Below are positions 464 through 14,710 of a DNA stretch of 64,000 nt, piece after piece. Position 1 is the first letter of the stretch. Every line of letters begins with the position of its first letter. Source of the stretch: Oscillospiraceae bacterium (lineage in GTDB: Bacteria > Bacillota > Clostridia > Oscillospirales > Oscillospiraceae); contig CADBYZ010000004.1 in the NCBI GenBank assembly GCA_902799075.1, positions 1,294-65,293 on the forward strand, in the 5' to 3' direction. The position numbers and the translations under genes were made by a program. A model generated the notes under the pieces. That model ran no database searches, was not told the origin of the DNA, and saw only the letters and a list, made by a program, of their open reading frames with translations.

Positions 464-506
464 AAGGCACCCCGTGCGAAATGCACGGGGTGCCTTGCTT
501 GTTTTT
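464..506. terminator. bidirectional intrinsic terminator between ORF 1..455 and pepT
   Basis: Perfect 14-bp stem AAGGCACCCCGTGC / GCACGGGGTGCCTT with a 5-nt loop, followed by GCTTGTTTTT. It sits between convergent genes. Confidence 0.8.
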
Positions 507-534
507 GTACACTCCCTTGCAAGACGCGCAGCGC

Positions 535-1755
535 TCACTCTTCCCTTTCACACACGATGTTCAGCAGGATCTCCACGACCTTGTCCATGTCCTCCACGGC
601 GATGTGCTCGCTCGGTCCGTGGAAGGCGGCGCCGCCGGTGCCGAGGTTCGGGCACGGCAGACCGCTGAACGACAGGCGCGCCCCGTCCGTGCCGCCGCGG
701 ATCGGGCTCGTCGCGGGTTTGAGCCCCGCCTTGCGGATGGCCCGCTCGGCCCGGCGGACGATCTGCATGTGGTCGGCCAGGATCTCCGCCATGTTGCGGT
801 ACTGCTCGTTGAGCGTGAGGGTGACGGTGCCCTCGCCGTACTCGGCGTTGAGCGCGCCCTCGATCTCGCGCAGGCGGTCGCAGCGGGCGAGAAAGCGCTT
901 TGCGTCATGGTCGCGCACGATGTACTTGAGCTCCGCCTCGCTCACGTCGCCGCGCATGTCCGTCAGATGATAAAAGCCCTCGTAGCCCTCGGTGCGGGCG
1001 GGGATCTCATCGGCGGGGAGCATGGCGTTGATGCGCATGGCGACAAGGCTCGCGTTGACCATCACGTCCTTGGCGGAGCCGGGGTGCACGCTCACGCCCT
1101 TGATAAGAAAGCCTGCCGAGGCGGCGTTGAAGGTCTCGTAGTTGATCTCCTCCGGGGCGTCCCCGTCCACCGTGTAGGCAAAGGCCGCGCCGAAGCGCTT
1201 GAAGTCCATCAGCCGCGCCCCGTGGCCGATCTCCTCGTCCGGGGTAAAGCACACCGCCAGCGCGCAGTGGGGCCGGTCAGAATGGATGAGCGTTTCGCAC
1301 ACGGTCATGATCTCGGCAACGCCCGCCTTGTCGTCCGCGCCCAGGAGCGTGGTGCCGTCGGTGGTGATGATGGTCTTGCCCACGCAGTTTTTGAGCTCGG
1401 GGAAGTCCCGCGGACTGAGCACCAGCCCGGACGTGCCGAGGGCGATGTCTCCCCCGTCATAGTCAAAGTGCGTCTGCGGCTTCACGCCGGTGCCGGAGAA
1501 GGCCGGGGCCGTGTCGATGTGTGCGATCAGGCCGATGACGGGCTCCGATTCCCAGCCGGGGCTTGCCGGCAGGAAGGCGTAGGTGTAGGCGTGGGGGTCG
1601 GTGTAGACCCGCTTCATCCCCAGGTCCTGCAGCTCACAGTGCAAAAGCCACGAAAAGGCGTACTGCTTTTCGGTGCTGGGGGTGACGGCGTCGTTGTCTC
1701 CGTTGCTCTGTGTGTCGATCGCCGCATAGCGCAATAAACGTTTGTATGCTCTCAT
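535..1755 (-). CDS. pepT: peptidase T (tripeptide aminopeptidase, M20B)
   Basis: Track ORF 535..1902 trimmed to the ATG at 1753-1755 (MRAYKRLLRYAAIDTQS). Motifs HIDTAP, LGADDKAGVAEIM and FTPDEEIGHG. Confidence 0.9.
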   Translation of the reverse strand: MRAYKRLLRYAAIDTQSNGDNDAVTPSTEKQYAFSWLLHCELQDLGMKRVYTDPHAYTYAFLPASPGWESEPVIGLIAHIDTAPAFSGTGVKPQTHFDYDGGDIALGTSGLVLSPRDFPELKNCVGKTIITTDGTTLLGADDKAGVAEIMTVCETLIHSDRPHCALAVCFTPDEEIGHGARLMDFKRFGAAFAYTVDGDAPEEINYETFNAASAGFLIKGVSVHPGSAKDVMVNASLVAMRINAMLPADEIPARTEGYEGFYHLTDMRGDVSEAELKYIVRDHDAKRFLARCDRLREIEGALNAEYGEGTVTLTLNEQYRNMAEILADHMQIVRRAERAIRKAGLKPATSPIRGGTDGARLSFSGLPCPNLGTGGAAFHGPSEHIAVEDMDKVVEILLNIVCEREE

Positions 1756-1780
1756 GTAAATAGCCTCGCAATTCTTCTTT

Positions 1781-1895
1781 GGCTCCCTCTCTGAGGGAGC
1801 TGTCGCGCAGCGGCTGAGGGAGTTGTGCGTCAGCTTACAAACCCCTTCCACCGCTGAAGCGGTCCCCCTCCCCCAATCGCCGCAAGCGGCTGGGG
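1781..1895. repeat. cluster of GC-rich hairpin modules in the ylmH-pepT spacer
   Basis: Hairpin GCTCCCTC-tctg-AGGGAGC, then CCTCCCCCA...TGGGGGAGG enclosing GCCGC-aa-GCGGC. Same style as the family C modules elsewhere in the window. Confidence 0.5.
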
Positions 1896-1905
1896 GAGGC
1901 AAGTT

Positions 1906-2649
1906 CTATCTGTACAGCTCCGCTGTCACAAACATTCTCCCTTTGCGGGAGCTGCCGCCGATCCCGGCGACTTTTCCCTTGCCGGTGCCGCGTAAGGTCA
2001 GCACGTCGCCCTCCTTCACAGGCGCGTCGGGTTTTAAGCACTCCGTGTAGTTGAGCTGGATAAGCCCCGCCGCGATCTGGCGCGTGACCTCCGTGCGCGA
2101 AAGGTGGAAAAGCCCCGCCGCCACCGCGTCCAGGCGCGGGCTCATGACCGTGAAGCGGCGCTCCTCCGTCTTCTTCCCGCGCACCGGGATCTCTGAAAGC
2201 GCGATTTCGACCGCCTTCACCCCGCAGCGGCCCACCTTGTCGATACTGAGCAAATGCCGCAGGACGCTCGGTTGACATAATACGATCGCCTCATGTCCCT
2301 CGACCAGGATATCGCCGACCCACTCGCGCCCGACCCCCATGCCGAGGATCGCGCCCATATAGTCCCGGTGCCCCGGTTCCCCGAAGGCGGCGGTGAGGCG
2401 GATAGCGCGGATGTGCTCGGAAACGTCCAGGGCGTCCGCCTCCATCCAGTCGGGCAGGAAAAAGGCGATACAGCGCTCGGCGTCCGGGTGGCCGCCGTGA
2501 AAGACCATGTTCGCCTCCCGGAGGGCTTGGTCGTGCTCGAGGGCGCAGCGCTCGGCGGGGGTGAGAAAGCCGGTATTCGTGGGCGTGCCCCGGCCCTCAC
2601 AGCGGCGCGCCAGGTCCTCGGCCCGTTTAAGAATCTCTTCTTTGTCCAT
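1906..2649 (-). CDS. ylmH: YlmH-like S4-domain RNA-binding protein
   Basis: 247 aa with the same motif order as B. subtilis YlmH: FLTPAE, GG..DAER, HRDYMGAILGMGVGREWVGDILV, and a C-terminal S4 region SPRLDAVAAGLFHLSRTEV..VKEGDVLTLRGTGKG. GAGG lies 9 nt upstream of the ATG. Confidence 0.8.
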   Translation of the reverse strand: MDKEEILKRAEDLARRCEGRGTPTNTGFLTPAERCALEHDQALREANMVFHGGHPDAERCIAFFLPDWMEADALDVSEHIRAIRLTAAFGEPGHRDYMGAILGMGVGREWVGDILVEGHEAIVLCQPSVLRHLLSIDKVGRCGVKAVEIALSEIPVRGKKTEERRFTVMSPRLDAVAAGLFHLSRTEVTRQIAAGLIQLNYTECLKPDAPVKEGDVLTLRGTGKGKVAGIGGSSRKGRMFVTAELYR

Positions 2650-5221
2650 CCTGCAGCCTCGTCTGATGTGCGTTGAAGTTTGTTTTTTTCAAGACCTCTT
2701 CGATCTGACTGAGTACCCATTCCACCTCGCCCCTGAATTCCCCGGACGAGCATCTGAGCACCCCGGAGCGCAAGGCCGACAGGCGGATGAGGTTGTCGCT
2801 GGTCACGACGCGCACCGCGTAGTTTTTGCCGATCTCGTCGACGATGCGCTCGATGTAGGCGTCGGCGGTCTCGCCGTCCTTCGTGAAGGCCACCGAGATG
2901 TTGTGGTACTCCGTGCGGGAACCGGGGTTGCCCGGCGTGCGGAAGCCGTCGAACACCAGCACGAGCCTTGCCCCCGTAAAGCCCGCGTAGCCCGAGAGGA
3001 TGTCCATGAGCCGCTCGCGGGCAAGGTCCAGACGGTCGCGCGCCAGGGCCTTGAGCTCGTCCCAGGCGAAGATGAGGTTGTAGCCGTCGACGATGATGTG
3101 CTCTTTCCTGGAAGATATCTGCGAGACCTCCGTCACGGCGGCGTTTACCTGCCGGGCGCGGTACTCGGGGCGGCGGATGGGGCCGAACTCCCGCTCCATG
3201 ATGGCCTCGAGCTCCCGGTCGTCGATGTTCAGGCTCCGGTAGCGCTGTATGGGCTTTGCGGGCGCTTCCTCCTGCTTCGGCTTCAAAACGCTTTCGAGGT
3301 GCATGTATTCCGGCACCTCACGCCAGTTCACGTTCATGCCCGCCCCGTGGGCGCAGAAGACGGAGTCGGCGGGGTTTTCCTCGTCCCGCTCGGGTTCATA
3401 CCCGATTTCTTCCACGATGCGCTTTTGCTCACTGCACGGGCGGTAGCCGCAGGGCGTGAGGCTCAGGCGGCCCCGGCCGTGGGACCAGGAGACCAGCTCC
3501 TCCATATAATGATTGAGCTTCACCGCCGGGGCCGCGCCCTCCAGGCGCAGGTACTCGCCCTGTTCCTCGGGGGACGAGAAGTCCCCGTTCATGGCGCGGA
3601 TGTCGGTGATGGCCCGGCCGATCTGCTCGGCGGGCACTTCCAGCACAAAGCTGTACCAGGGCTCGAGCAGCACGGACTCCGCCTGCATGAGACCCTGCCG
3701 CACGGCGCGGTAGGTGGCCTGGCGAAAGTCCCCGCCCTCGGTGTGCTTGAGGTGGGCGCGGCCCGCTGCCAGCGTGATGCGCATGTCGGTGACGGGTGAG
3801 CCGGTGAGCACGCCCCTGTGCTGCTTTTCGGCAAGGTGCGTCAAAATCAGGCGCTGCCAGTTGCGGTCCAGCACATCCTCCGGCACGATGCTGTCAAAGC
3901 TCAGGCCGCTGCCGGGCGGCAGGGGCTCAAGCAATAAGTGCACCTCGGCATAGTGGCGCAGGGGCTCGAAATGGCCCACGCCCTCCACGGTATTTTTGAT
4001 GGTTTCCCTGTATAAAATACGTCCGGTGTCAAGCTCGATCTCGGTATCGAAGCGGTCGCGGACGATGCTTTTGAAGATCTCCGCCTGGATCTTGCCCATG
4101 AGCTGGACGCTGATCTCCTTGGACTGCGCGTTCCAGACCACGTGCAGCTGCGGGTCCTCCTGGTCAAGCTGCATGAGCTTGGGCAGCAGGAGCATGGGAT
4201 CCGTGCCCTTGGGAAGCAGCACCCGGTAGCTCATGACCGGCTCCAATACCGGGCCCTCCGCGTCGGCGGCGGCGCCCAGGCCCTGGCCGGGTCTTGCGGC
4301 GCTTAAGCCCAGGGCCGCGCAGACCCAGCCCGCCCGTACCTCCTCGGCGGTGTCGAACTTCTGGCCCGAGTAGACGCGAAGCCCGCTGATCTTTTCCTCG
4401 ATGGGGTTGCCCTCGGCGTCGTTATATTTTGATAATGTGCGCACCCTGAGGCTCCCGCCCGTGACCTTGAGCCAGGTCAGGCGGTTTCCCTGGGCGTCGC
4501 GGGAAATCTTATAGACCCGCGCGGCAAAGTCCGGCCCGTAGGCGGGACAGGGGGCGTATTTTTCCAGGGCGTCCAAAAACTCGCCCACGCCCTCGGTCTT
4601 GAGGCCCGAGCCGAAGAAGCACGGGAAGAGCCGCCGGGAGGCAATCAGGCCGCGCAGAGTTTCGTCCCCGATGCTGCCGCCCTCCAGGTATTCCTCCATG
4701 GCCCCCTCGTCGCACATGGCGACAGCGTCGTCACGCTCGGGGCCGCCGAAATCGACGCAGCGCTCGGAAAGGCGCGAGCTCAGCTCGTGCATCAGGGCAT
4801 CGCGGCCGGGGCCGGGCAGGTCCATCTTGGTGATGAATAAGAAGGTCGGAACATGATAGCGCTCCAAAAGCTTCCATAGCGTCTCCGTGTGGGCCTGTAC
4901 GCCGTCGGTGCCGGAGATGACCAGCACCGCGCAGTCGAGTACGCGAAGCGTGCGCTCGGCCTCGGCGGAGAAGTCCACGTGGCCCGGGGTGTCCAGCAGG
5001 GTCAGGCTCCCCTCCCCCAGCGGCAGGACGGCCTGCTTGGAGAAGATGGTGATGCCCCGCTGCCGCTCCAGGGCATGGGTATCGAGGAAGCTGTCGCGGT
5101 GATCGACCCTTCCCAGCTTTTTCAGTTTTCCCGTGAGGTACAGCATGGCCTCGCACAGCGTGGTCTTGCCCGCGTCCACATGCGCCAGGATGCCCAGCAC
5201 CACATTCTTTTCGTTTCCCAT
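2627..5221 (-). CDS. EF-G/TetM-family translational GTPase fused to a C-terminal YacP/Rae1-type NYN ribonuclease domain
   Basis: A single 864-aa ORF. GTPase motifs are G1 AHVDAGKTT, G2 RGITI, G3 DTPGH and G4 TKMD, with domain V-like LLEPWYSF. Residues 706-864 (nt 2630-3106) read IIVDGYNLIFAW / LVLVFDG / VAFTKDGETADAYIE / VVTSDN, as in YacP/Rae1. Confidence 0.85.
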   Translation of the reverse strand: MGNEKNVVLGILAHVDAGKTTLCEAMLYLTGKLKKLGRVDHRDSFLDTHALERQRGITIFSKQAVLPLGEGSLTLLDTPGHVDFSAEAERTLRVLDCAVLVISGTDGVQAHTETLWKLLERYHVPTFLFITKMDLPGPGRDALMHELSSRLSERCVDFGGPERDDAVAMCDEGAMEEYLEGGSIGDETLRGLIASRRLFPCFFGSGLKTEGVGEFLDALEKYAPCPAYGPDFAARVYKISRDAQGNRLTWLKVTGGSLRVRTLSKYNDAEGNPIEEKISGLRVYSGQKFDTAEEVRAGWVCAALGLSAARPGQGLGAAADAEGPVLEPVMSYRVLLPKGTDPMLLLPKLMQLDQEDPQLHVVWNAQSKEISVQLMGKIQAEIFKSIVRDRFDTEIELDTGRILYRETIKNTVEGVGHFEPLRHYAEVHLLLEPLPPGSGLSFDSIVPEDVLDRNWQRLILTHLAEKQHRGVLTGSPVTDMRITLAAGRAHLKHTEGGDFRQATYRAVRQGLMQAESVLLEPWYSFVLEVPAEQIGRAITDIRAMNGDFSSPEEQGEYLRLEGAAPAVKLNHYMEELVSWSHGRGRLSLTPCGYRPCSEQKRIVEEIGYEPERDEENPADSVFCAHGAGMNVNWREVPEYMHLESVLKPKQEEAPAKPIQRYRSLNIDDRELEAIMEREFGPIRRPEYRARQVNAAVTEVSQISSRKEHIIVDGYNLIFAWDELKALARDRLDLARERLMDILSGYAGFTGARLVLVFDGFRTPGNPGSRTEYHNISVAFTKDGETADAYIERIVDEIGKNYAVRVVTSDNLIRLSALRSGVLRCSSGEFRGEVEWVLSQIEEVLKKTNFNAHQTRLQDGQRRDS

Positions 5222-5436
5222 GTGCGTATTTTACCAGCTTTTTCCGAAAGAATCAATGTAAAATATGGCGGAGTTAATGGCGTTATGTAACCTTTTGCAC
5301 ATTGCATGCAAAAAGAAATACAATTTTCTGAAACTTTGTCTATTATTTTTGTCAGAGTCATGTTATAATTAGAGAGTATATTGCAATCTCATTGACTTTG
5401 AATTATCTACTATATAAAATAAGGGGTACACACGAG

Positions 5437-6126
5437 ATGAAGAAAATACTGGTTTTGGAGGACGAGTCCAATATTCGCAGCTTTGTGGTCATCAATCTGC
5501 GCCGCAGCGGCTTTGAGCCCATCGAAGCCGGCACCGGCGAGGAGGCGCTGGAGAAGTGGAAGGTCAATCCCGACATCTGCCTTGCGCTGCTGGACGTGAT
5601 GCTGCCGGACATCGACGGCTTTGAGGTCTGCCGCCGCATCCGCGCCTCGGGCTCGAAGATGGGCATCATCATGCTCACCGCGAAGAACCAGGAGATCGAC
5701 AAGGTCACCGGCCTCATGACCGGGGCCGACGACTATGTCACCAAGCCCTTCTCCCCCGCCGAGCTCACCGCCCGCGTCGACGCGCTCATCCGCCGTCTGG
5801 GCGTGGACGACGCGGAGAAATCCTCCACCGAGATCGTGAGCGGGCCCTTCCTGCTCAACACCCGCAACCGCACCCTTGAAAAGGACGGGCAGCGCCTCAA
5901 GCTCACGCAGATCGAATACATGCTCATCAAGCTCTTTATGGAAAATCCCGGCAAGGCCATGAGCCGCGAGGATATCCTCTCCGCCGTCTGGGGCAGCGAC
6001 TTCACGGGCGAGCTCAAGACCGTGGACGTGAATATCCGGAGACTTCGCATCAAGATCGAAAACGACCCCACCGAGCCGGAGTATTTGACGACCGTGTGGG
6101 GCTACGGGTATAAGTGGGGGTACTGA
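5437..6126 (+). CDS. OmpR-family response regulator
   Basis: Track ORF trimmed to the ATG at 5437 (MKKILVLEDE), with AAGGGG 10 nt upstream. Receiver motif LLDVMLPDIDGFEV and winged-helix end YLTTVWGYGYKW. Confidence 0.9.
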   Translation: MKKILVLEDESNIRSFVVINLRRSGFEPIEAGTGEEALEKWKVNPDICLALLDVMLPDIDGFEVCRRIRASGSKMGIIMLTAKNQEIDKVTGLMTGADDYVTKPFSPAELTARVDALIRRLGVDDAEKSSTEIVSGPFLLNTRNRTLEKDGQRLKLTQIEYMLIKLFMENPGKAMSREDILSAVWGSDFTGELKTVDVNIRRLRIKIENDPTEPEYLTTVWGYGYKWGY

Positions 6127-6131
6127 GAAAG

Positions 6132-6333
6132 CGTGGAGTTTTGAGTGTGGAGTGTGGAGTTAAGGAGCGGCTCCGCCGCGATAAAAAAAGGCTCCGCCAA
6201 CAGTAACGCGAAGCGTACGCTTTCAAGGCATGGAAAAGAATTCAATCCGTCCCCCGAAAGGGAACACCATAACTTCACTCTCCACTCTTTAAACTCCAAA
6301 CTCCAAACTCCAAACTCCAAACTTCAAACTCAA
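6132..6333 (+). repeat. family A heptamer-armed hairpin element, copy A1 (between RR and HK genes)
   Basis: Left arm GTGGAGTTTTGAGTGTGGAGTGTGGAGTT (6133-6161). Right arm AACTCCAAACTCCAAACTCCAAACTCCAAACTTCAAACTC (6292-6331). The heptamer units are complementary at 6 of 7 positions, and the interior is about 130 nt. Confidence 0.8.
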
Positions 6334-6350
6334 ATTAGGAAGTACGATTC

Positions 6351-7367
6351 ATGTTTGGCAACTTACGAACACAGCTGCTGCTGTCGAGCATCGCGGCGCT
6401 GGCCCTGCTGCTGATGGGCACCTGGGCCTCCACGCACGGGCTCATGAACTGGGCCACCGCCATCTATATCGCCCTGTGCGTGTATGTGCTGGCGGTCAAT
6501 GTCTGGTTCCGGTTCTGCGTGGCGGGGCCGCTCGAGAAGCTGCGGGAATTTGCAAAGCGCATCGCCACCGGCAGCTTTGGGCTCAAGACCGAGGACTTTG
6601 AGCCTGACGAGATCGGTTACCTCGCCGAGGAGATCAACGGCATCTCCGAGAAAACGGCGCTGGCCGAGAAGACCAGGACGGAGTTTATCTCCCAGGTCTC
6701 CCACGAGCTGCGCACCCCCCTGACCGCCATCACCGGCTGGGCCGAGACCATCGCCTACGACCCCGCGGTGCAGGGCGACTCCCTCAGGGGCATCCAGATC
6801 ATCTCCAAGGAGGCCGAGAGGCTGACCAACATGGTCAAGGAGCTGCTGGAATTTACCCGCATCCAGGACGGGCGCTTCAATCTGCAGATCGAGCTCATCG
6901 ACATTGCCGCCGAGCTCGAGGACGCGCTGTTTACTTACGGGGAGCTCATGAAGCAGGGCGGCATGAAGGTCAACTACCGCGGCCCGAAATCCGAGATCCC
7001 GCTCATCCCCGGCGACTCCGAGAGGTTAAAGCAGGTGTTTCTGAACCTGCTCGACAACGCCATGAAGCACGGCGGCGAGGGCGGGCGCATCGACGTAGAC
7101 CTCAAGCAGATTGACGGCGCGGTGCGCATCCGCGTGCGCGACTACGGCCACGGCATCCCCGAGGCGGAGCTTCCCCACGTCAAGGAGAAGTTTTACAAGG
7201 GCAGCTCCAAGAACCGCGGCACCGGCATCGGTTTGGCTGTCTGCGACGAGATCGTCACCCGCCACGGCGGCACCCTGGACATCGCCAACGCCCCCGGCAA
7301 GGAGGGCGGCTGTCAGGTCACGGTGACCCTTCCCATCGGGGCGAAACTCAACGCAGGCGGGAAGTAA
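6351..7367 (+). CDS. sensor histidine kinase (two N-terminal TM helices, HisKA + HATPase_c)
   Basis: H-box VSHELRTPLTAITGW, N-box LLDNAMKHG, G-box GTGIGLAVC. Lies directly downstream of the response regulator. Confidence 0.9.
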   Translation: MFGNLRTQLLLSSIAALALLLMGTWASTHGLMNWATAIYIALCVYVLAVNVWFRFCVAGPLEKLREFAKRIATGSFGLKTEDFEPDEIGYLAEEINGISEKTALAEKTRTEFISQVSHELRTPLTAITGWAETIAYDPAVQGDSLRGIQIISKEAERLTNMVKELLEFTRIQDGRFNLQIELIDIAAELEDALFTYGELMKQGGMKVNYRGPKSEIPLIPGDSERLKQVFLNLLDNAMKHGGEGGRIDVDLKQIDGAVRIRVRDYGHGIPEAELPHVKEKFYKGSSKNRGTGIGLAVCDEIVTRHGGTLDIANAPGKEGGCQVTVTLPIGAKLNAGGK

Positions 7368-7405
7368 TCCCCGCATTATCGCAACATACAGAGGAGAATG
7401 CAATT

Positions 7406-8356
7406 TTGAAAAATCCCACATCCTGCAATTTCAAGACATCCATCGGCGGTCAGGCCCTCATCGAGGGCATCCTGATGCGCGGACCGAAGAAGCAGGCCAT
7501 CGTCTGCCGCACGGCGGACGGGCTTGTGGAAAAGACCGAAGACCTCAAGTTCATCAAGGACCGCTACCCGATCCTCGGCTGGCCGCTCATCCGCGGCTGC
7601 GCCATCTTCCTCAGCTCCATGATAAACGGCATGCAGGCCCTCACCTACTCGGCAAGCCTCGTCCCCCTCGAGGAGCAGGGCGAGCCGGATAAGCTCGACC
7701 AGTGGATCAACAACCACTTTTCCGAGGAGAAGGCCAAGAACATCATCATCGGCGTGGCGGTGGTGCTCGGCATCGCGCTGAGCCTGTTTTTGTTCATCTT
7801 CCTGCCCGCCCTGATCGTGAGCCTCATCAAGCCCCTGACCGAGAGCCTCTTTGTGCGCAACATCGCCGAGGGCCTCACCCGCGTCATCATTCTGCTGACC
7901 TACATGAAGCTCGTCACCCTCACCCCCGATGTCAAGCGCCTGTTTTCCTACCACGGCGCCGAGCACAAGACCATCTTCTGCTACGAGCACGGCAAGGAGC
8001 TGACGGTCGAAAACGTGCGGCCCGAGTCCCGCTTCCACCCCCGCTGCGGCACCAGCTTCCTGCTGGTCGTGGTGGTGGTGAGCATCCTGGTAAACTCCGT
8101 GGTGCGCGTGCAGAATACCTTCGCCCGCATGGGCTTTCACCTGCTGCTTTTGCCCGTCGTGGTGGGCATCAGCTATGAGATCAACCGCTGGTGCGGCCTG
8201 CACGACAACTGGCTGTCCGCCGCGCTCTCCGCGCCGGGCAAGTGGCTGCAGCGCATCACCACCAACGAGCCGGACGACAGCATGATCGAGTGCGCCATCC
8301 GCGCCATCGAGCTTGTCATTCCGGACGAACAGGGCAGCGACGCCTGGGGGAGCTGA
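7406..8356 (+). CDS. DUF1385 (YqhQ-like) membrane protein
   Basis: TTG start with GAGGAG 9 nt upstream. Motifs IGGQALIEGILMRGP, YHGAEHKTIFCYEHG and FHPRCGTSFLL. Classic neighbour of prmC. Confidence 0.85.
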   Translation: MKNPTSCNFKTSIGGQALIEGILMRGPKKQAIVCRTADGLVEKTEDLKFIKDRYPILGWPLIRGCAIFLSSMINGMQALTYSASLVPLEEQGEPDKLDQWINNHFSEEKAKNIIIGVAVVLGIALSLFLFIFLPALIVSLIKPLTESLFVRNIAEGLTRVIILLTYMKLVTLTPDVKRLFSYHGAEHKTIFCYEHGKELTVENVRPESRFHPRCGTSFLLVVVVVSILVNSVVRVQNTFARMGFHLLLLPVVVGISYEINRWCGLHDNWLSAALSAPGKWLQRITTNEPDDSMIECAIRAIELVIPDEQGSDAWGS

Positions 8357-8362
8357 ACGCTT

Positions 8363-9217
8363 TTGAAAACCTACAACGAACTGTACATCAATACCCGCAA
8401 CACCTTAAAGCGCGCCGAGATCGAGGCCTACGCCCTCGAGGCGCGGGTCCTGGTGGCCTCCGCCGCCGGGAAGACCGTGCAGCAGCTTCTGCGGGATCTG
8501 AACCTCTACACCACCGACAAGGTGGAGGCGCTGGTGCAGGAGTACACCGACAGGCGGCTCAAGGGTGAACCCGTGGCCTACATCACCGGCGACTGGGAGT
8601 TTTACGGCCTGCCGATGAAGGTGACGAAGGATGTGCTCATCCCGCGCACCGATACGGAGCTGCTGGTGGATCTGAGCAAGGAAGCGCTCACCGGCTGGAA
8701 GATGGACGCGCGGGTACTGGATCTTTGCTGCGGGAGCGGCTGCATCACCTGCGCCGTCGGCCACGAGCTGCCCGCGACGAAGCTGGTGGCGGTCGATTTG
8801 AGCGCAAGCGCCCTCGAGATCTGCCGCCAGAACGTGAACTTAAACCGCCTGACCACCCGCGTCATCTGCATGCAGGCCGACGCCCTCGCCTCTCCCCCGC
8901 TGGGGATCGGGAGCTTTGACCTCATCGTGTCCAATCCCCCTTACATCCAAAGCGGCGAGATCGCGGCCCTTGACCGCTCGGTGCGCGATTACGAGCCCAT
9001 GTGGGCCCTCGACGGCGGCAAGGACGGTCTGCGCTTTTACAAGGGCATCATCAAGCACTGGAAGACCCTCCTGCGCCCCCAGGGCCTCATCATCTTCGAG
9101 GTCGGCGAGGGCCAGGCCGACACGGTCGCCGATATGCTGATGGCGGCGGGCTTTTCCGCCTGCACCGTGCACAGGGACACGAGAGGCGTGCTAAGGGCGG
9201 TTGTCGGGAGAATGTAA
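8363..9217 (+). CDS. prmC: release-factor glutamine N5-methyltransferase
   Basis: SAM motif LDLCCGSGCI and catalytic NPPY (IVSNPPYIQ). TTG start according to the track. Confidence 0.9.
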   Translation: MKTYNELYINTRNTLKRAEIEAYALEARVLVASAAGKTVQQLLRDLNLYTTDKVEALVQEYTDRRLKGEPVAYITGDWEFYGLPMKVTKDVLIPRTDTELLVDLSKEALTGWKMDARVLDLCCGSGCITCAVGHELPATKLVAVDLSASALEICRQNVNLNRLTTRVICMQADALASPPLGIGSFDLIVSNPPYIQSGEIAALDRSVRDYEPMWALDGGKDGLRFYKGIIKHWKTLLRPQGLIIFEVGEGQADTVADMLMAAGFSACTVHRDTRGVLRAVVGRM

Positions 9218-9221
9218 AACA

Positions 9222-9316
9222 GTGTGGAGTTATGAGTGTGGAGTGTGGAGTTTTATACTCTCTTCACGAGCAGGACCCCGTTAACTCCAAACTCCAAACT
9301 CCAAACTCCAAACTTT
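9222..9316 (+). repeat. family A element, copy A2 (short form, prmC-recA spacer)
   Basis: Arms GTGTGGAGTTATGAGTGTGGAGTGTGGAGTT and AACTCCAAACTCCAAACTCCAAACTCCAAACTT around a loop of about 30 nt. Same orientation as A1. Confidence 0.8.
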
Positions 9317-9373
9317 ATATCAAACTTCGTACATCATTACTTGCCTGAAAACATGGCAGATTGGAGAATAACC

Positions 9374-10492
9374 ATGGCTGAAAAGAAAAAGGTCCCCGCG
9401 GTCGTCGCGCCTGCAAACGCCGACAAGAAGAAGGCGCTGGAAACCGCCATCGCCAAGATCGAGAAGGATTACGGCAAGGGCACCATCATGCGTCTGGGCG
9501 ACGATATCAACGTAAACGTCGAGGCGCTGTCCACCGGGTCTCTGGCATTGGACCTGGCCCTCGGCATCGGCGGCATCCCCAGAGGCCGCATCATTGAGAT
9601 CTACGGCCCCGAGGCGAGCGGCAAGACCACCCTGGCCCTGCACGCCGTCGCCTCCGCCCAGAAATCGGGCGGTGAGGCCGCCTACATCGACGTGGAGCAC
9701 GCGCTGGAGCCCGCTTACGCGAGAGCTCTCGGCGTGGACATTGACAGTCTCCTCATCTCCCAGCCCGATACCGGCGAGCAGGCCCTCGACATTGCCGAGT
9801 CCCTGGTGCGCTCCGGCGCCGTGGACGTGGTGGTCATCGACTCCGTCGCCGCCCTCATCCCCCGCGTGGAGCTCGAGGGCGAGGTGGGCGACACCGTGGT
9901 AGGCGCGCTGGCCCGCCTCATGAGCCAGGCCATGCGCCGCCTTGCGGGCGCGATCTCCAAGAATAACTGCACCGTCATCTTCATCAACCAGCTGCGCCAG
10001 AAGATCGGCGTCATGTACGGAAACCCCGAGACCACCCCCGGCGGCCTCGCCCTCAAGTACTACGCGAGCGTGCGCATCGACGTGCGCAGGATCGAGACCC
10101 TCAAGGTCAACGGCGAGATGGTCGGCAACCGCACCCGCGCCAAGGTCGTCAAGAACAAGGTCGCGCCCCCCTTCCGCGAAGCGGAGTTCGACATCATGTA
10201 CGGCGAGGGCATCTCCAAGATCGGTGAGATCGTGGACCTCGGCGTCAAGCTTGAGATCATCGACAAGGCCGGCGCGTGGTTCACCGTGGACGGCAACCGC
10301 ATCCAGGGCCGCGACGGCGTCAAGCAGTACCTGGCCGACAACCCCGAGGTCTGCGACAAGATCGAGCAGGAGATCCGCGACAACGCCCACAAGCTCATGA
10401 GCCCCCAGGCCATGAAGGCCGCCATGGCCTCCGGCCGCGCCGCCCCTGCTCCCGCCCTCGACGTGAGCGCGGCGGACTTTGAGGAGGACTAA
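9374..10492 (+). CDS. recA: recombinase RecA
   Basis: Track ORF 9236.. trimmed to the ATG at 9374 (MAEKKK), with GGAGA 7 nt upstream. Walker [10 protein letters not shown] and [10 protein letters not shown]. Confidence 0.97.
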
Positions 10493-10501
10493 GCCCCGCC
10501 C

Positions 10502-11116
10502 ATGCGCATCACATCCCTGAAACAGACCACCACCGAGCATGTGACGGTGGTGCTGGAGGACGAGAGCGAGGTCAAAACCACCCTCGGCACCGTGACCGAG
10601 CTGCGGCTTTTCGCCGGGCGGGAGCTCAGCGAGCAGGATTTGGACATCCTGCGCCGGGAGTCGAAGAAGGCGCTCAGCCGGGAAAAGGCGCTGGAGCTTG
10701 TGTCCCAGCGGCAGATGTCGGCCAGGGAGCTGAATAAAAAGCTGCGCGACAAGGGCGCGGACGAGGAGACTGCCGATTACTGCGTGCAGTGGATCGTGGA
10801 GCGCGGGCTTCTTGACGAGGAGCGCTACGCCGCCGCCGTCGTGCGCCACTATGCCGCGAAGGGCTACGGCGAGGGGCGCGTGCGCCAGGAGCTTATGCGC
10901 CGGGGCGTGCCGCGTGAGCTGTGGGACGACGCCCTCTCCGAGATGCCGGAGGACACATCAAAGCTTGACCGCCTGGTGGCCGCGAAGCTGCGCGATCCGG
11001 AAGACCGGGACGCGGTGCGCAGGCTCTCCGCCTCCCTCTGCCGCCGGGGCTACAGCGGTGAGGAGATCCGTGAGGCGCTTGAACGGGCAAGAGCGTCGTT
11101 TGACTATGAGGAATAA
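10502..11116 (+). CDS. recX: RecX regulatory protein
   Basis: 204-aa helical-repeat protein immediately downstream of recA, with RecX-like size and composition. The call rests mainly on position and general similarity. Confidence 0.75.
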   Translation: MRITSLKQTTTEHVTVVLEDESEVKTTLGTVTELRLFAGRELSEQDLDILRRESKKALSREKALELVSQRQMSARELNKKLRDKGADEETADYCVQWIVERGLLDEERYAAAVVRHYAAKGYGEGRVRQELMRRGVPRELWDDALSEMPEDTSKLDRLVAAKLRDPEDRDAVRRLSASLCRRGYSGEEIREALERARASFDYEE

Positions 11117-11119
11117 GCT

Positions 11120-12451
11120 ATGGAAGCTACGAATAAAAGCTTTGCAATGATTTCCCTGGGCTGTGCCAAGAACCTGGTCAACAGCGAGCAGATGCTGTAT
11201 CTGATGAGCGAAGCGGGCTTCACGCTGGTGCCGGACCCGGACGGGGCCGACCTTGTGATCGTGAACACCTGCGGCTTCATCGACGCGGCGAAATCCGAGG
11301 CCATCGACAACATTCTTGAGATGGCGGAGCTCAAAAAGGCGGGACGCCTCGGCGGCATCATCGTGACGGGGTGCCTGTCCGAGCGCTACAAGGACACGAT
11401 CCTCAACGAGCTGCCCGAGATCGACGCGGTGCTCGGCATCAGTAATTTCAAGGACATTGTCTTTGCCGCCAACGCCGTCATGGAACGGCGCGCGTGCAGC
11501 CTCTTTTCCGACCAGAGCGCGCCGGTGGATGAGATTCCCCGCGTCGTGACCACCGGGCCGGGCTGGGCCTATCTCAGGATCGCGGAGGGCTGCAACAACT
11601 TCTGCGCCTTCTGCGCCATCCCCTTCATCCGGGGCCGTTACCGCTCCAGGAGCATGGAGAATATCCTGGAGGAGGCGCGGGACCTGGCTGCCCACGGGGT
11701 GAAGGAGCTCATCGTCATCGCCCAGGACATCACCCGCTACGGCACCGATCTCTACGGGAAACGCTGTCTTGCGGAGCTGTGCCGGAAGCTCTCGGAAATT
11801 GAGGGCATCGAGTGGCTGCGCCTGCATTACCTGTATGTGGATCAGTTCGACGAGGAGCTGATCGACGAGATTGCGAACAATCCCAGGATCGTCAAGTATC
11901 TGGACATCCCCATCCAGCACATCAACGATCAGATCCTCAGGCGCATGAACCGCCGCGGCACGGGCGCGGATATCCGCAGGCTCTTCAAAACGCTGCGCGA
12001 GCGCGTTCCCGGTCTGGTGCTGCGCACGAGCCTGATCGCGGGCCTCCCCGGCGAGGGGGAAGCCGAATTTGAGGAGCTGTGCGAATTTCTGAGGGAAGCG
12101 CGTATCGAGCGTGTGGGCGTCTTCCCCTTCTCCCCCGAGGAAGGGACCCCCGCCGCGCAGATGGAGCATGCGGACTATGAGGAGGCCCAGCGCCGCGCCG
12201 ACCTGATCCTGGAGCTCCAGGCCCCGATCATGGAGGACTTCTGCCGGAGCTTTGTGGGCAGGACTATCGACGTGCTGTGCGAGGGCTTCGACGAGGAAAG
12301 TCAGAGCTTCTACGGACGCTCCTACGCCGACTCCCCCGACATCGACGGGCAGGTCTTCTTTGACGGCCCCGGCCGCGCGGGCGATATCCAACGTGTCGTG
12401 ATCGACGATACCGACGACGGCCTGCTCTTCGGGCATTTGGAGGAGGAGTGA
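11120..12451 (+). CDS. rimO: ribosomal protein S12 methylthiotransferase
   Basis: N-terminal ISLGCAKNLVNSEQM, radical-SAM motif CNNFCAFCAIP, C-terminal TRAM region. Confidence 0.88.
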   Translation: MEATNKSFAMISLGCAKNLVNSEQMLYLMSEAGFTLVPDPDGADLVIVNTCGFIDAAKSEAIDNILEMAELKKAGRLGGIIVTGCLSERYKDTILNELPEIDAVLGISNFKDIVFAANAVMERRACSLFSDQSAPVDEIPRVVTTGPGWAYLRIAEGCNNFCAFCAIPFIRGRYRSRSMENILEEARDLAAHGVKELIVIAQDITRYGTDLYGKRCLAELCRKLSEIEGIEWLRLHYLYVDQFDEELIDEIANNPRIVKYLDIPIQHINDQILRRMNRRGTGADIRRLFKTLRERVPGLVLRTSLIAGLPGEGEAEFEELCEFLREARIERVGVFPFSPEEGTPAAQMEHADYEEAQRRADLILELQAPIMEDFCRSFVGRTIDVLCEGFDEESQSFYGRSYADSPDIDGQVFFDGPGRAGDIQRVVIDDTDDGLLFGHLEEE

Positions 12452-12453
12452 GC

Positions 12454-12975
12454 ATGAACACTACTGCCAACAAGATCACCATTGCGCGTATCGCGCTGAT
12501 CCCGGTATTCCTGGTGCTTTGCTACACCGGTCACCGCATCGCCGCCACCGTCGTGTTTATCCTCGCCAGTCTCTCGGACCTGCTGGACGGCTACATCGCC
12601 CGGCACTACAACCAGGTCTCCAACTTCGGCAAGTTCATGGACCCGCTGGCGGACAAAATGCTGGTGCTGTCGGCCATGTGCTTTCTGGCGGAGAAGGGGC
12701 AGATGCCCGGCTGGGTCGTGGCCGTGGTGCTGTTCCGGGAATTTGCGGTGTCCGGCCTGCGCCTTGTCGCCGCCGAGCGCCAGCGCGTCATCGCCGCCGC
12801 CTGGTCCGGCAAGGTCAAGACCACCTGTACGATGGTGGGCCTGTGCTTCGTGCTGGTGTTCACCCGGTATCCCTGGCTGAACATGCTCGTCTCCGCCGTG
12901 ATTCTGATCACCACGATCTACTCCGGCGTCGAGTATTTTATGAAGAACAAGGACGTGTTTCAAGACGCGGACTGA
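12454..12975 (+). CDS. pgsA: CDP-diacylglycerol--glycerol-3-phosphate 3-phosphatidyltransferase
   Basis: CDP-alcohol motif DLLDGYIARHYNQVSNFGKFMDPLADK. I prefer the ATG at 12454 (GGAGGAGGAG upstream) over the track GTG at 12448. Confidence 0.9.
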   Translation: MNTTANKITIARIALIPVFLVLCYTGHRIAATVVFILASLSDLLDGYIARHYNQVSNFGKFMDPLADKMLVLSAMCFLAEKGQMPGWVVAVVLFREFAVSGLRLVAAERQRVIAAAWSGKVKTTCTMVGLCFVLVFTRYPWLNMLVSAVILITTIYSGVEYFMKNKDVFQDAD

Positions 12976-13007
12976 CGCTGTACGCTATTTCTTCGTCGTA
13001 TTTATTG

Positions 13008-13170
13008 TTTCACCGTAGGGGCCGACGCCCTCGGCGGCCCGCACGGTACAGTCTCAAATTGTGTGGAAATCCCTAGTGGTCATTTATATACAGTTTGTTT
13101 TTGCTGTTGATAAGTGCGTTTATTGTGATTTCACCGTCGGGCCGCCGAGGGCGTCGGCCCCTACAATGTC
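13008..13170. mobile_element. family B MITE-like element, copy B1 (about 150 bp, 27-bp perfect terminal inverted repeats)
   Basis: GTAGGGGCCGACGCCCTCGGCGGCCCG at 13015-13041, with its exact reverse complement at 13138-13164. The interior is AT-rich. A second copy lies at 31645-31800. Confidence 0.6.
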
Positions 13171-13258
13171 ACCAATTCCGGACACAAAAACGCCGCTTCT
13201 CTTTAGTCTCTTGCATTATTCGGCTTTTCTATCCTGTTCATAAAAGGAGTTAATATCA

Positions 13259-14710
13259 ATGATCCTGTACAATTCCGCCTCGCGTAAACGGGAAGAGTTT
13301 GTTCCCAACGACCCCAGCCTTGTCAAGATGTACACCTGCGGCCCGACGGTCTACCACTTCGCGCACATCGGCAACCTCCGCTCCTACATCATGGAGGACA
13401 TCCTGGAGAAGTACCTGCGCTACACGGGCTACAACGTCAAGCGCGTCATGAACATCACCGATGTCGGCCACCTCACCTCCGACGCCGACGAGGGCGAGGA
13501 CAAGATGCTCAAGGGCGCAAAGCGCGAGCACAAGTCCGTCATGGAGATCGCGCAGTACTATACCGACGCTTTCTTCGACGACTGCGCAAAGCTCAACATC
13601 AAGACCCCCGATGTGGTGGAGCCCGCCACGCACTGCATCGACGATTACATCAAGATCATCTCGAAGCTCATGGACACGGGCTACGCCTACTTTGCCGGCG
13701 GCAACGTGTACTTTGATACCTCGAAGCTCGAGCGCTACTACGTCTTTAACGACTTCAAAGAGGAGGACCTGAACGTCGGCGTGCGCGAGGGCGTGGAAGA
13801 AGATACCAACAAGCGCAACAAGAACGATTTCGTTCTCTGGTTCACCAAGTCCAAGTTCGAGGACCAGGCCCTCAAGTGGGACTCCCCCTGGGGCGTGGGC
13901 TACCCCGGCTGGCACATCGAGTGCTCCGGCATCTCCATGAAGCACCTGGGTGAGAACATCGACATCCACTGCGGCGGCATCGACAACGCCTTCCCCCACC
14001 ACACCAATGAAATTGCCCAGTCCGAAGCCTATCTTGGCCATCCCTGGGTCAAATACTGGATGCATGTCCTCCACCTGAACACCACCTCCGGCAAAATGAG
14101 CAAGTCCAGCGGCGAGTTTCTGACCGTCTCTCTGCTCGAGCAGAAGGGCTACGATCCCCTCGCCTACCGCTTCTTCTGCCTGCAGAGCCACTACCGCAAG
14201 AGTCTGGTGTTCACCTGGGAAAACCTCGACAACGCCCAGGGCGCGTACCTGAAGCTCATCGCCCGCATCGCCGCCCTCAAACCCGAGGACGGGGAAGTCG
14301 ACGAGGCCGCCTTCAACGAGCTGGACGCGAAGTTCCGCGCCGCCATGGACAACGACCTCAACTCCTCCCTCGCCGTCACGGCGCTCTACGACGTGCTCAA
14401 GGCCAGGACCAATGACGCGACCAAGCTCAAGGCCATCGGCGCGTTCGACACTGTGCTGGGTCTGAGCCTGCTTGAAAAGGCAAGTGTGAAGCGCGAGGAG
14501 CTCAAGCGCCAGCAGGTCGCGGCGGGACAGTTCACCGTCGTGTCCGAATCCGGCGAAGAAGACCCCGAGATCGAGGCAAAGATCATGGCCCGCCAGGACG
14601 CGAAGAAGGCCAAGAATTTCGCCGAGGCCGACCGTATCCGCGACGAGCTCAAGGCCGCCGGGATCGAGGTCACCGACATCCCCCACGGCGCAAAGTGGAA
14701 GAGAATGTAA
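13259..14710 (+). CDS. cysS: cysteine--tRNA ligase
   Basis: HIGH motif (HIGNLRSY), KMSKS motif (KMSKSSG), class I CysRS layout. Confidence 0.97.
   Translation: MILYNSASRKREEFVPNDPSLVKMYTCGPTVYHFAHIGNLRSYIMEDILEKYLRYTGYNVKRVMNITDVGHLTSDADEGEDKMLKGAKREHKSVMEIAQYYTDAFFDDCAKLNIKTPDVVEPATHCIDDYIKIISKLMDTGYAYFAGGNVYFDTSKLERYYVFNDFKEEDLNVGVREGVEEDTNKRNKNDFVLWFTKSKFEDQALKWDSPWGVGYPGWHIECSGISMKHLGENIDIHCGGIDNAFPHHTNEIAQSEAYLGHPWVKYWMHVLHLNTTSGKMSKSSGEFLTVSLLEQKGYDPLAYRFFCLQSHYRKSLVFTWENLDNAQGAYLKLIARIAALKPEDGEVDEAAFNELDAKFRAAMDNDLNSSLAVTALYDVLKARTNDATKLKAIGAFDTVLGLSLLEKASVKREELKRQQVAAGQFTVVSESGEEDPEIEAKIMARQDAKKAKNFAEADRIRDELKAAGIEVTDIPHGAKWKRM

Follow-up and report, generated by a model that had tools for sequence, protein, structure and literature searches.

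A translational GTPase fused to a Rae1-type NYN nuclease domain in gut and rumen Clostridia: a candidate ribosome-anchored mRNA endonuclease

Introduction

What could a single polypeptide do that carries a translational GTPase (trGTPase) at one end and a ribonuclease of a ribosome-associated type at the other? The question is raised by a gene in a 64,000-nucleotide stretch of DNA from an Oscillospiraceae bacterium (GenBank assembly GCA_902799075.1, contig CADBYZ010000004.1, positions 1,294 to 65,293 of the forward strand), the whole of which is referred to here as the window. This gene encodes an 864-residue protein in which a GTPase of the elongation factor G (EF-G)/TetM type is followed, in the same open reading frame (ORF), by an NYN_YacP domain. 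Bacillus subtilis Rae1, a ribosome-associated, translation-dependent mRNA endonuclease, is the only characterised NYN_YacP member. GTPases of the EF-G/TetM type bind the factor site of the ribosome and place their domain IV in the aminoacyl (A) site of the 30S subunit. A reading of the DNA alone, referred to here as the original prediction, had combined these two properties into a GTPase-delivered nuclease that acts in the A site. The analysis described below establishes that the fusion is genuine and belongs to a large family, for which the best reading of the sequence evidence is a housekeeping translation-surveillance factor, or 'ribosome-anchored Rae1'.

The architecture itself has been catalogued before. 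It was noted by Atkinson in 2015, with no function given and with a hidden Markov model (HMM) placing the proteins in the Tet subfamily (PMC4342817), and again by Matelska et al. in 2017 as 'TetM-NYN_YacP fusion proteins' of unclear role (PMC5499597). The window protein has the arrangement described for the TetM-like-NYN_YacP proteins of Clostridia, namely a trGTPase followed by NYN_YacP in one polypeptide. The architecture had therefore not gone unremarked, as the original prediction implied. Its statement that no function is described for the architecture is borne out: neither a published characterisation of TetM-NYN_YacP fusions nor a published link between them and Rae1 biology was found in the literature searched, and the family is functionally unstudied.

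The literature on Rae1 bears directly on how the fusion is read. YacP-type NYN domains were first tied to rRNA and tRNA processing by their gene context, which includes mrnC, rlmB and cysS (PMC5499597). A docking proposal from 2017, as summarised in PMC12407103, then placed Rae1 in the A site. This model has been withdrawn by its own authors (Deves et al.), and Rae1 is now described as turning collided ribosomes into substrates for transfer-messenger RNA (tmRNA) (Tetreault et al. 2026, PMC13622287). The premise of A-site action on which the original prediction drew has thus been given up in favour of collision rescue. Binding of Rae1 to the ribosome is transient, and hence there is no structure of ribosome-bound Rae1 (PMC13622287). 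Rae1 also responds to antibiotic-stalled ribosomes, such as those stalled by erythromycin.

Results

A single open reading frame encodes the GTPase and the nuclease domain

All coordinates given here are positions within the window, and residue numbers are those of the 864-residue fusion protein. As originally proposed, the fusion gene is one uninterrupted ORF of 864 codons at 2627-5221, in which residues 706-864 correspond to nucleotides 2630-3106; the earliest available start is the ATG at 5221. A Pfam search of the protein places all five expected domains above their gathering scores: GTP_EFTU (residues 6-224, E = 2.3e-47), EFG_III (residues 327-398, E = 2.9e-07), EFG_IV (residues 400-514, E = 1.8e-17), EFG_C (residues 517-600, E = 5.8e-15) and NYN_YacP (PF05991, residues 709-853, E = 3.1e-40 and 138.3 bits, the cut-off being 24.6). 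The motifs by which the two halves had been recognised from the DNA are all found where they had been placed: AHVDAGKTT at residues 13-21, RGITI at 55-59, DTPGH at 77-81, TKMD at 131-134 and LLEPWYSF at 518-525 in the GTPase, and IIVDGYNLIFAW at 709-720, LVLVFDG at 753-759, VAFTKDGETADAYIE at 777-791 and VVTSDN at 805-810 in the nuclease domain. Residues 1-705 match EF-G with E = 4e-71, Tet(O) with E = 8e-67 and Tet(M) with E = 5e-64. An AlphaFold model of the fusion (predicted template modelling score, pTM, of 0.50) has as its top Foldseek matches exclusively EF-G structures (E ~1e-52). The protein carries the features by which the trGTPase superfamily is defined: G1-G4, a catalytic His after the DxxG motif and EF-G-type domains II-V.

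The same single ORF is present at 24 reference-genome loci, and all 240 of the database homologues listed carry the fusion, each with PF00009, PF03764, PF00679 and PF05991. Among the metagenome matches listed, a sample biased to relatives that are 62-77% identical in domains IV and V, the signature GTPase runs into the NYN domain within the same ORF in 72 of 75 informative loci. One further locus reaches the NYN domain via a frameshift on a contig of 2x coverage, which brings the number of fused loci to 73 of 75. Neither an unfused signature GTPase nor a split gene pair was found in these 75 loci. Because the identical single ORF recurs in reference genomes, database homologues and metagenome loci, the fusion is genuine and is neither an assembly nor a frameshift artefact. 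The alternative of two separate genes, divided by a stop codon or a frameshift in the linker, was not seen, the ORF being single across relatives. The linkage of the GTPase to the NYN domain is effectively always kept and is, in effect, obligate in the family.

Two metagenome loci join the GTPase and the segment that follows domain V to other sequences. At L049 (about 4735-5425), an NlpC/P60-like domain comes next, and at L096 (about 2157-2934), a sequence that resembles the C-terminus of an outer-membrane beta-barrel protein. Contig coverage at both is 2-2.5x. These two are probably chimeric assemblies; a real domain swap in L049 is possible.

Both predicted enzymatic halves are conserved

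Conservation was assessed in a family alignment of 68 full-length representatives from different 50%-identity clusters, with pairwise identities below 50%. In the GTPase, D16, K19 and T20 of G1, T58 of G2, D77 of G3, and K132 and D134 of G4 are present in all 68 members, and the catalytic H81 is present in 67. When conservation is expressed as the mean top-residue fraction over 12-residue stretches, the best-conserved 12-mer of the whole protein is loop I of the domain IV tip, GHFEPLRHYAEV, with a value of 0.95 versus 0.93 for the P-loop. Loop III of the same tip, KHTEGGDFRQAT, ranks third with 0.87, and no part of the protein is better conserved than domain IV and the P-loop-to-G3 core, which are level. 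This conservation of the tip is what contact with the invariant decoding centre would predict. The G' insertion is strongly reduced relative to EF-G. With G1-G4 and the catalytic His kept and the domain IV tips nearly invariant, the assignment to the EF-G/TetM family made in the original prediction is upheld, and the module has the appearance of a true ribosome-binding trGTPase.

The NYN part matches the crystal sequence of B. subtilis YacP/Rae1 (5MQ8/5MQ9) with E = 2.7e-20 over 139 residues. The acidic site, made up of D712, D758, D787 and D809, corresponds to D7, D53, D81 and D104 of B. subtilis Rae1 and is invariant in 68 of 68 members, as are N715 and T780. The Rae1/YacP identity of the C-terminal domain, likewise part of the original prediction, is thus supported by the Pfam match, by the match to 5MQ8 and by an intact acidic site. 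From the 5MQ8 alignment and the invariance within the family, on which the assignment of catalytic residues rests, the NYN nuclease is predicted to be catalytically intact. Because both the G-motif residues and the NYN aspartates are kept across 68 diverse members, the two predicted enzymatic halves are both judged to be under purifying selection.

The nuclease domain shares with B. subtilis Rae1 the VDGYN, FTK..ETAD and TSD motifs, the four aspartates and a long C-terminal helix. In contrast to Rae1, which is a free protein of ~170 residues, it is tethered to a 600-residue trGTPase and a mini-domain. The stand-alone single-domain form that is usual in Gram-positives (PMC5499597) is not what is found here, the NYN domain forming the C-terminus of an 864-residue protein. 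The canonical context of Rae1, cysS-mrnC-rlmB-rae1-sigH, is also absent for the fusion, and the cysS of the window has no such cluster alongside. No second NYN or trGTPase gene was found in the window, and hence there is no stand-alone rae1 within it. The activity that is proposed for the fusion is that of Rae1, namely endonucleolytic cleavage of mRNA on stalled or collided ribosomes.

A folded mini-domain and a disordered tether connect the two halves

The original prediction had described a linker of about 65 residues between the GTPase and the nuclease. A connecting segment does exist, but it consists of a folded mini-domain (residues 599-645) followed by a disordered tether of ~60 residues (residues 646-705). 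The mini-domain has a family-specific motif, GY(D/E)P..D..NP..SVFC.HGAG..V.W..V..YMH, and in the Pfam search of the fusion protein no model covers residues 599-645. A weak alignment over a short motif (C...V..YM) pairs its helix at residues 633-639 with the C-terminal helix of TetM/TetO, with an insertion of 22 residues before it. The second half of the mini-domain may tentatively be regarded as homologous to the C-terminal helix region of TetM/TetO.

In the tether, the predicted local distance difference test score (pLDDT) of the AlphaFold2 (AF2) model is about 30-40. Conservation is the lowest in the protein and the sequence drifts freely, yet the length of the tether is kept at a minimum of 64 residues, with a median of 83 and a maximum of 147 (68 members). 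In the longer family members, the extra length lies in G-domain insertions or longer tethers, with no added domains. A short helix motif inside the tether has a column conservation of 0.87 at E670, 0.90 at I674 and 0.81 at G680, and may be a docking or autoinhibitory element. A tether that is kept in length and free in sequence fits a spacer that reaches a site away from the factor pocket; the retention of at least 64 residues would place the target of the nuclease away from the factor-binding site.

The family is widespread in gut and rumen Clostridia

A search with the C-terminal 264 residues alone found 339 clusters at 50% identity (E <= 1e-30), and most of the full-length matches to this query also align through the mini-domain. 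A metagenome scan for two signature peptides of domain IV gave at least 600 matches. Carriers include Oscillospiraceae (Ca. Limivicinus and Pseudoflavonifractor), Lachnospiraceae (Roseburia, Agathobacter rectalis and strain MD1), Monoglobus pectinilyticus and Acetivibrio cellulolyticus. The window derives from an Oscillospiraceae member of the rumen or gut, and the closest relatives are found in RUG and Limivicinus metagenome-assembled genomes, at 91-97% identity. The fusion family is large, old and widespread in gut and rumen Clostridia.

One contig labelled 'Bacteroidaceae bacterium' (L013, CAVFGM010000149.1) carries a block of the Oscillospiraceae type, with DUF1385, histidine kinase (HK) and response regulator (RR) genes followed by fusion-ylmH-pepT, at 65-91% protein identity. 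This contig is probably mis-binned.

The GTPase is distinct from the tetracycline ribosomal protection proteins

To place the GTPase relative to the ribosomal protection proteins (RPPs) and to EF-G, it was aligned with genuine tet(M), tet(O) and fusA sequences taken from plasmid records. Identity of the GTPase part is 28-30% with Tet(M), Tet(O), Tet(S) and TetB(P) and 27-28% with EF-G. It has in common with Tet(M) and Tet(O) a five-domain EF-G-like GTPase of about 600-640 residues ahead of the tether, a reduced G' insertion, an alignment that runs as a single stretch over fusion residues 7-596, and an extension after domain V. The fusion differs from them in a 22-residue insertion within this C-terminal extension and in the addition of the tether and the NYN domain. 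It also differs in setting: Tet(M) and Tet(O) typically lie on mobile elements, whereas the fusion has a chromosomal housekeeping context. The fold, motifs G1-G4, the catalytic His and domains II-V are common to the protein and EF-G. Unlike EF-G, the protein is missing the greater part of the G' subdomain and carries in addition the mini-domain, the tether and the nuclease.

The tip of domain IV sets the fusion apart from both relatives. For the function of Tet(M), loop III is described as the element that matters most (PMC4750697). Its sequence there, L505-Y-Y-S-P-V510, reads R-A-H-L-K-H in the fusion at equal length, and R-AHLKH-T is invariant within the family. Loop I of Tet(M) is HIEVPPNPFWAS, and that of the fusion is two residues shorter and different in sequence. 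In EF-G, loop I is longer (RQSGGKGQYGH), the loop of the fusion being four residues shorter and without the GGRGQ motif.

Among the NCBIfam models, tet_protect (NF012153) is the best match, with 382.6 bits against a cut-off of 775. The more specific models also fall below their cut-offs: Tet(M) (203 versus 1420), TetM/W/O/S (235 versus 1100), Otr(A) (293 versus 900) and Tet(Q) (255 versus 1425). The same is true of the EF-G equivalog TIGR00484 (268.9 bits versus 659.4). Many members of the family (P0017, P0052, P0066, P0289, P0313 and others, as well as the plasmid-collection match H27, from Agathobacter rectalis) nevertheless carry the RefSeq/NCBI label 'TetM/TetW/TetO/TetS family tetracycline resistance ribosomal protection protein'. 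This label is almost certainly wrong, since the score is under half of the tet_protect cut-off, identity to the authentic proteins is 28-30%, loop III is replaced and the genomic context is a housekeeping one. Clostridia of the human gut and the rumen, among them Agathobacter rectalis, Roseburia, Pseudoflavonifractor and Monoglobus, carry the family in abundance, and such mislabelling can inflate resistome surveys.

Gene neighbourhood and expression

Downstream of the fusion gene lies a gene of the ylmH family, the ATG of which (2647-2649) sits 23 nt within the 3' end of the fusion ORF; pepT comes next. The product matches PF17774 with 34.2 bits (cut-off 23) and PF01479 with 22.9 bits (cut-off 22.8), and its score against TIGR03069 (105.7) is under the equivalog cut-off of 201.55. 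By these scores, it is a member of the YlmH family and not an equivalog of cyanobacterial Sll1252. Because the ylmH start overlaps the 3' end of the fusion gene, the two are likely to be co-transcribed and translationally coupled. The overlap or adjacency is conserved throughout the Oscillospiraceae clade of the window, and diverged metagenome relatives, with YlmH proteins 46-61% identical, keep the link too. In an unbiased tally of the metagenome matches listed, YlmH is the most frequent single neighbour, being found downstream in about 10 of 76 loci. In B. subtilis, YlmH is a factor of ribosome-associated quality control (RQC) (PMC11317155). As a universal partner of the fusion, YlmH was rejected, because its gene does not adjoin the fusion gene in Lachnospiraceae, Pseudoflavonifractor, Acetivibrio, Monoglobus and other lineages.

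In two Lachnospiraceae loci, a different ribosome-related gene is nearby. An rsmF-type gene for a 16S rRNA m5C methyltransferase overlaps the fusion stop codon by 26 nt in L022 (8657-9994) and lies one gene downstream of the fusion in L023 (10825-12207). These genes suggest another tie, independent of ylmH, to a neighbour connected with the ribosome, and the ylmH and rsmF links both appear to be lineage-specific. RsmF was likewise rejected as a partner, being limited to these two loci and one metagenome species. No partner gene is shared across nine diverse loci, and in the unbiased tally of the metagenome loci listed the downstream ORFs fall in 46 different Pfam families. Neither mobile elements (insertion sequences, IS, and transposons) nor resistance genes were found near the fusion gene in the nine diverse loci and the syntenic clade. 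A role as an anti-phage defence or toxin system was rejected on the basis of core-genome synteny, with no PADLOC match and no conserved small partner gene. No structured RNAs, tRNA or tmRNA were found in the 64-kb window.

Ahead of the fusion gene, a promoter-like element with an extended -10 sequence was identified (Table 1). The spacing from -35 to -10 and through six further nucleotides to the ATG is kept in about 18 related Oscillospiraceae loci (L001-L005, L007, L009-L018 and L024) despite diverged flanks. Since the spacing of the -10 element to the ATG is kept while the flanks diverge, and since there is no Shine-Dalgarno sequence, the fusion-ylmH transcript is probably leaderless in the clade of the window. 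Other clades carry GGAG ahead of the fusion gene. In Acetivibrio cellulolyticus (L027), a 42-codon ORF (5873-6001) ends exactly at the fusion start. Either chance or a role as leader peptide or attenuator, for which tet(M) sets a precedent, could account for it.

Several further features of the window were recorded. On the forward strand, 5392-14710 holds genes in the order RR-HK-DUF1385-prmC-recA-recX-rimO-pgsA-cysS. This order is syntenic with the 861-kb replicon of the cultured Vescimonas fastidiosa, also of the Oscillospiraceae (L033, pMM35_01), in which cysS is 78% identical and the fusion-ylmH-pepT block does not adjoin the syntenic genes. The V. fastidiosa cysS, like that of the window, lacks a mrnC-rlmB-rae1-sigH cluster, which is where a stand-alone rae1 is normally housed in Firmicutes. 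The pepT ORF (535-1902, reverse strand) is listed with a TTG start that lies ~50 codons upstream of where peptidase T homology begins (residue ~50, MRAYKRLL...), and its true start is probably an internal ATG. Long 'mirror' ORFs of up to ~500 residues run antisense to real genes, such as those at 2507-3799 (+), 481-1737 (+) and 9320-10849 (-), and there are many more; they are typical of a genome of ~65% G+C and are not evidence of genes. The G+C content drops to 0.55-0.58 at about 4.5-7 kb, over the intergenic promoter region and the two-component genes.

Table 1 Features of the fusion locus, in window coordinates, with the residues of the fusion protein in parentheses
Feature	Position	Strand	Evidence or remarks
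trGTPase-NYN fusion CDS (coding sequence), complete	2627..5221	-	864 aa; stop at 2627-2629; ORF conserved in relatives
G domain (residues 1-230; G1 13-21, G2 55-59, G3 and catalytic His 77-81, G4 131-134)	4532..5221	-	Pfam GTP_EFTU
Domains II and III (residues 231-399)	4025..4531	-	EFG_III; EF-G_D2 in homologues; AF2 beta-barrel and alpha/beta elements
Domain IV (residues 400-515)	3677..4024	-	EFG_IV, E = 1.8e-17
Domain IV tip loop I, GHFEPLRHYAEV (residues 416-427)	3941..3976	-	Family signature
Domain IV tip loop III, KHTEGGDFRQAT (residues 492-503)	3713..3748	-	Takes the place of Tet(M) L505-V510 (LYYSPV)
Domain V (residues 516-598)	3428..3676	-	EFG_C, E = 5.8e-15
C-terminal extension, mini-domain (residues 599-645)	3287..3427	-	Conserved; AF2 pLDDT 80-88; helix-hairpin-helix
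Disordered tether (residues 646-705)	3107..3286	-	pLDDT <50 for 648-668 and 679-704
Short helix motif inside tether, D.ELE.I..R..GPI.R (residues 668-684)	3170..3220	-	Predicted helix 666-679
NYN_YacP domain and long C-terminal helix (residues 706-864)	2630..3106	-	Pfam E = 3.1e-40; 5MQ8/5MQ9
ylmH-family gene (YlmH_RBD and S4 domain), downstream	1906..2649	-	Pfam, NCBIfam
Promoter-like TTGATT-17 nt-(TG)TAAAAT (extended -10)	5228..5256	-	Ends 6 nt ahead of ATG; no Shine-Dalgarno

Discussion

Taken together, these observations are consistent with a GTPase-anchored, tethered Rae1 that would cut mRNA at stalled or collided ribosomes, either on them or next to them, a proposal to which we give about an even chance of being correct. 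In the mechanism proposed, the five-domain module in its GTP form would dock in the ribosomal factor-binding site and push the tip of domain IV into the decoding centre. Docking would be confined to ribosomes in which the A site or the factor site stays free, namely those that are paused, stalled or collided. The mini-domain and a disordered tether, 64 residues long or more, join the GTPase to the Rae1-type endonuclease and, once the GTPase is docked, would let the nuclease sweep the mRNA just outside the ribosome, probably on the entry side or between the members of a collided pair. As demonstrated for free Rae1 in B. subtilis, the cut would turn the stalled complex into a truncated-mRNA complex, a substrate for trans-translation or for RQC through YlmH, and hydrolysis of GTP would then free and reset the factor. 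The nuclease is placed outside the A site because the protein's own domain IV would fill that site and because the spacer is long. A cut at this location would be compatible with where free Rae1 cuts. A built-in anchor is, moreover, a plausible solution for this enzyme because the binding of free Rae1 is transient. The ylmH overlap, combined with the role of YlmH in RQC, is suggestive support that is specific to one clade. Of the original proposal, action on the ribosome by a GTPase-delivered nuclease remains the best general reading; the A-site detail is dropped, its premise having been withdrawn, the A site being the expected place of domain IV and the tether being long.

Several points weigh against this proposal. 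For the choice of RNA target among mRNA, rRNA and tRNA, the sole ground is that the NYN domain is homologous to Rae1. The structural model has a pTM of only 0.50, which bears on the mRNA segment that the tethered nuclease might reach and on which ribosome of a collided pair would be bound. No gene of a rescue pathway is a conserved neighbour across the family, in which the fusion gene mostly stands alone in unrelated housekeeping contexts, and the link to YlmH could be the inherited synteny of one clade. Finally, among characterised proteins the GTPase module is closest to the drug-displacing RPPs, so that a role related to drugs is possible.

If the RNA target is taken to be other than mRNA, the fusion could be an enzyme directed at rRNA or tRNA on ribosomes or pre-ribosomal particles, cutting the 3' region of 16S rRNA, h44 or the A/P-site tRNA in maturation, in quality control, or in inactivation or degradation under stress. 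The early gene-context ties of YacP-type NYN domains to mrnC, rlmB and cysS (PMC5499597) point in this direction, as do some neighbours of the fusion (RsmF, Dus, a pseudouridine synthase and the S4-domain protein YlmH) and the invariant domain IV tip, when this is taken as a sign of intimate contact with the decoding centre. However, B. subtilis Rae1 cuts mRNA, no rRNA role for Rae1 was found in the literature searched, and the neighbours that act on RNA are sporadic. A tether of at least 64 residues would be needless for reaching rRNA or tRNA beside domain IV, and a constitutive rRNA cutter would be toxic, whereas neither an antitoxin-like partner nor a defence signature was found. This reading is considered unlikely. 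The tether also bears on the literal A-site model, in which the GTPase brings the NYN domain into the A site and the nuclease cleaves the codon there, as RelE does. Domain IV of the EF-G/TetM type is known to reach the A site, and the possible homologue of the TetM C-terminal helix in the mini-domain, tentative as it is, would steer the chain back towards the decoding centre. The 2017 docking proposal, as given in PMC12407103, put Rae1 there as well; that proposal no longer has the support of its own authors. Judging from the structures of EF-G and TetM, the A site would be filled by domain IV of the same polypeptide, and a long, disordered tether of conserved length argues for a remote target. 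The literal A-site model is accordingly regarded as quite improbable.

The possibility remains to be weighed that the protein is what its database label says, a true tetracycline RPP, with the RNase as an accessory; a 'novel mechanism of antibiotic resistance' was raised by Atkinson, who assigned these proteins to the Tet subfamily by HMM (PMC4342817). The rank of tet_protect as the best NCBIfam model, the one-stretch alignment to TetO/TetM without the G' insertion of EF-G, and the response of Rae1 to ribosomes stalled by antibiotics such as erythromycin are in agreement with this view. In contrast, 382.6 bits is under half of the equivalog cut-off and every specific Tet model fails, identity to authentic RPPs is about the same as that to EF-G, and the residues L505, Y506, Y507, S508, P509 and V510 of loop III correspond to R, A, H, L, K and H in the fusion, in a tip whose loop I differs too. 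The context is vertically inherited, syntenic and of a housekeeping kind, the loci examined being free of IS elements, transposons and resistance genes, and a resistance gene mobilised in recent times would not be expected to form so deep and broad a family. A resistance function of this type is therefore held to be very improbable indeed.

The ribosome-anchored Rae1 that is favoured here has counterparts in logic elsewhere. In eukaryotes and archaea, Dom34-Hbs1 loads an A-site-binding module on stalled ribosomes by means of a translational GTPase. In PMC13622287, a like logic is described for SmrB of E. coli, Cue2 of yeast and Dom34-Hbs1, by which a stalled or collided ribosome is recognised and an endonuclease, brought in or activated in this way, cuts the mRNA for rescue. 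The resemblance is purely one of analogy, as there is no sequence relationship: these systems use SMR or Pelota domains in place of the NYN domain of the fusion, and recognition at the disome interface stands against the proposed recognition of the factor site by a single polypeptide.

The fusion represents a natural joining of Rae1 to a factor-site GTPase that could be trapped with a non-hydrolysable GTP analogue, and thereby offers a handle on how Rae1 recognises ribosomes. If the proposal is correct, a natural, stably docking Rae1 could show where Rae1 sits on the ribosome. It would also mean that bacteria can sense stalls via the GTPase-associated centre with the nuclease built in, a mode unlike that of the disome-interface sensors SmrB and MutS2 and conceptually near that of the eukaryotic Hbs1-Dom34/Cue2 systems. 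In a broader form of the proposal, which we consider plausible but somewhat short of an even chance, the family would constitute a self-contained bacterial 'no-go decay' factor, in which the invariant domain IV tip senses a ribosome unable to move on, with its A site vacant or else locked and collided, and the GTP-gated module licenses the tethered Rae1 to cut the neighbouring mRNA, so that sensing, timing and cleavage would be united in one polypeptide. Such a factor would replace or supplement free Rae1 in these Clostridia and feed its products to tmRNA or, through YlmH, to RQC.

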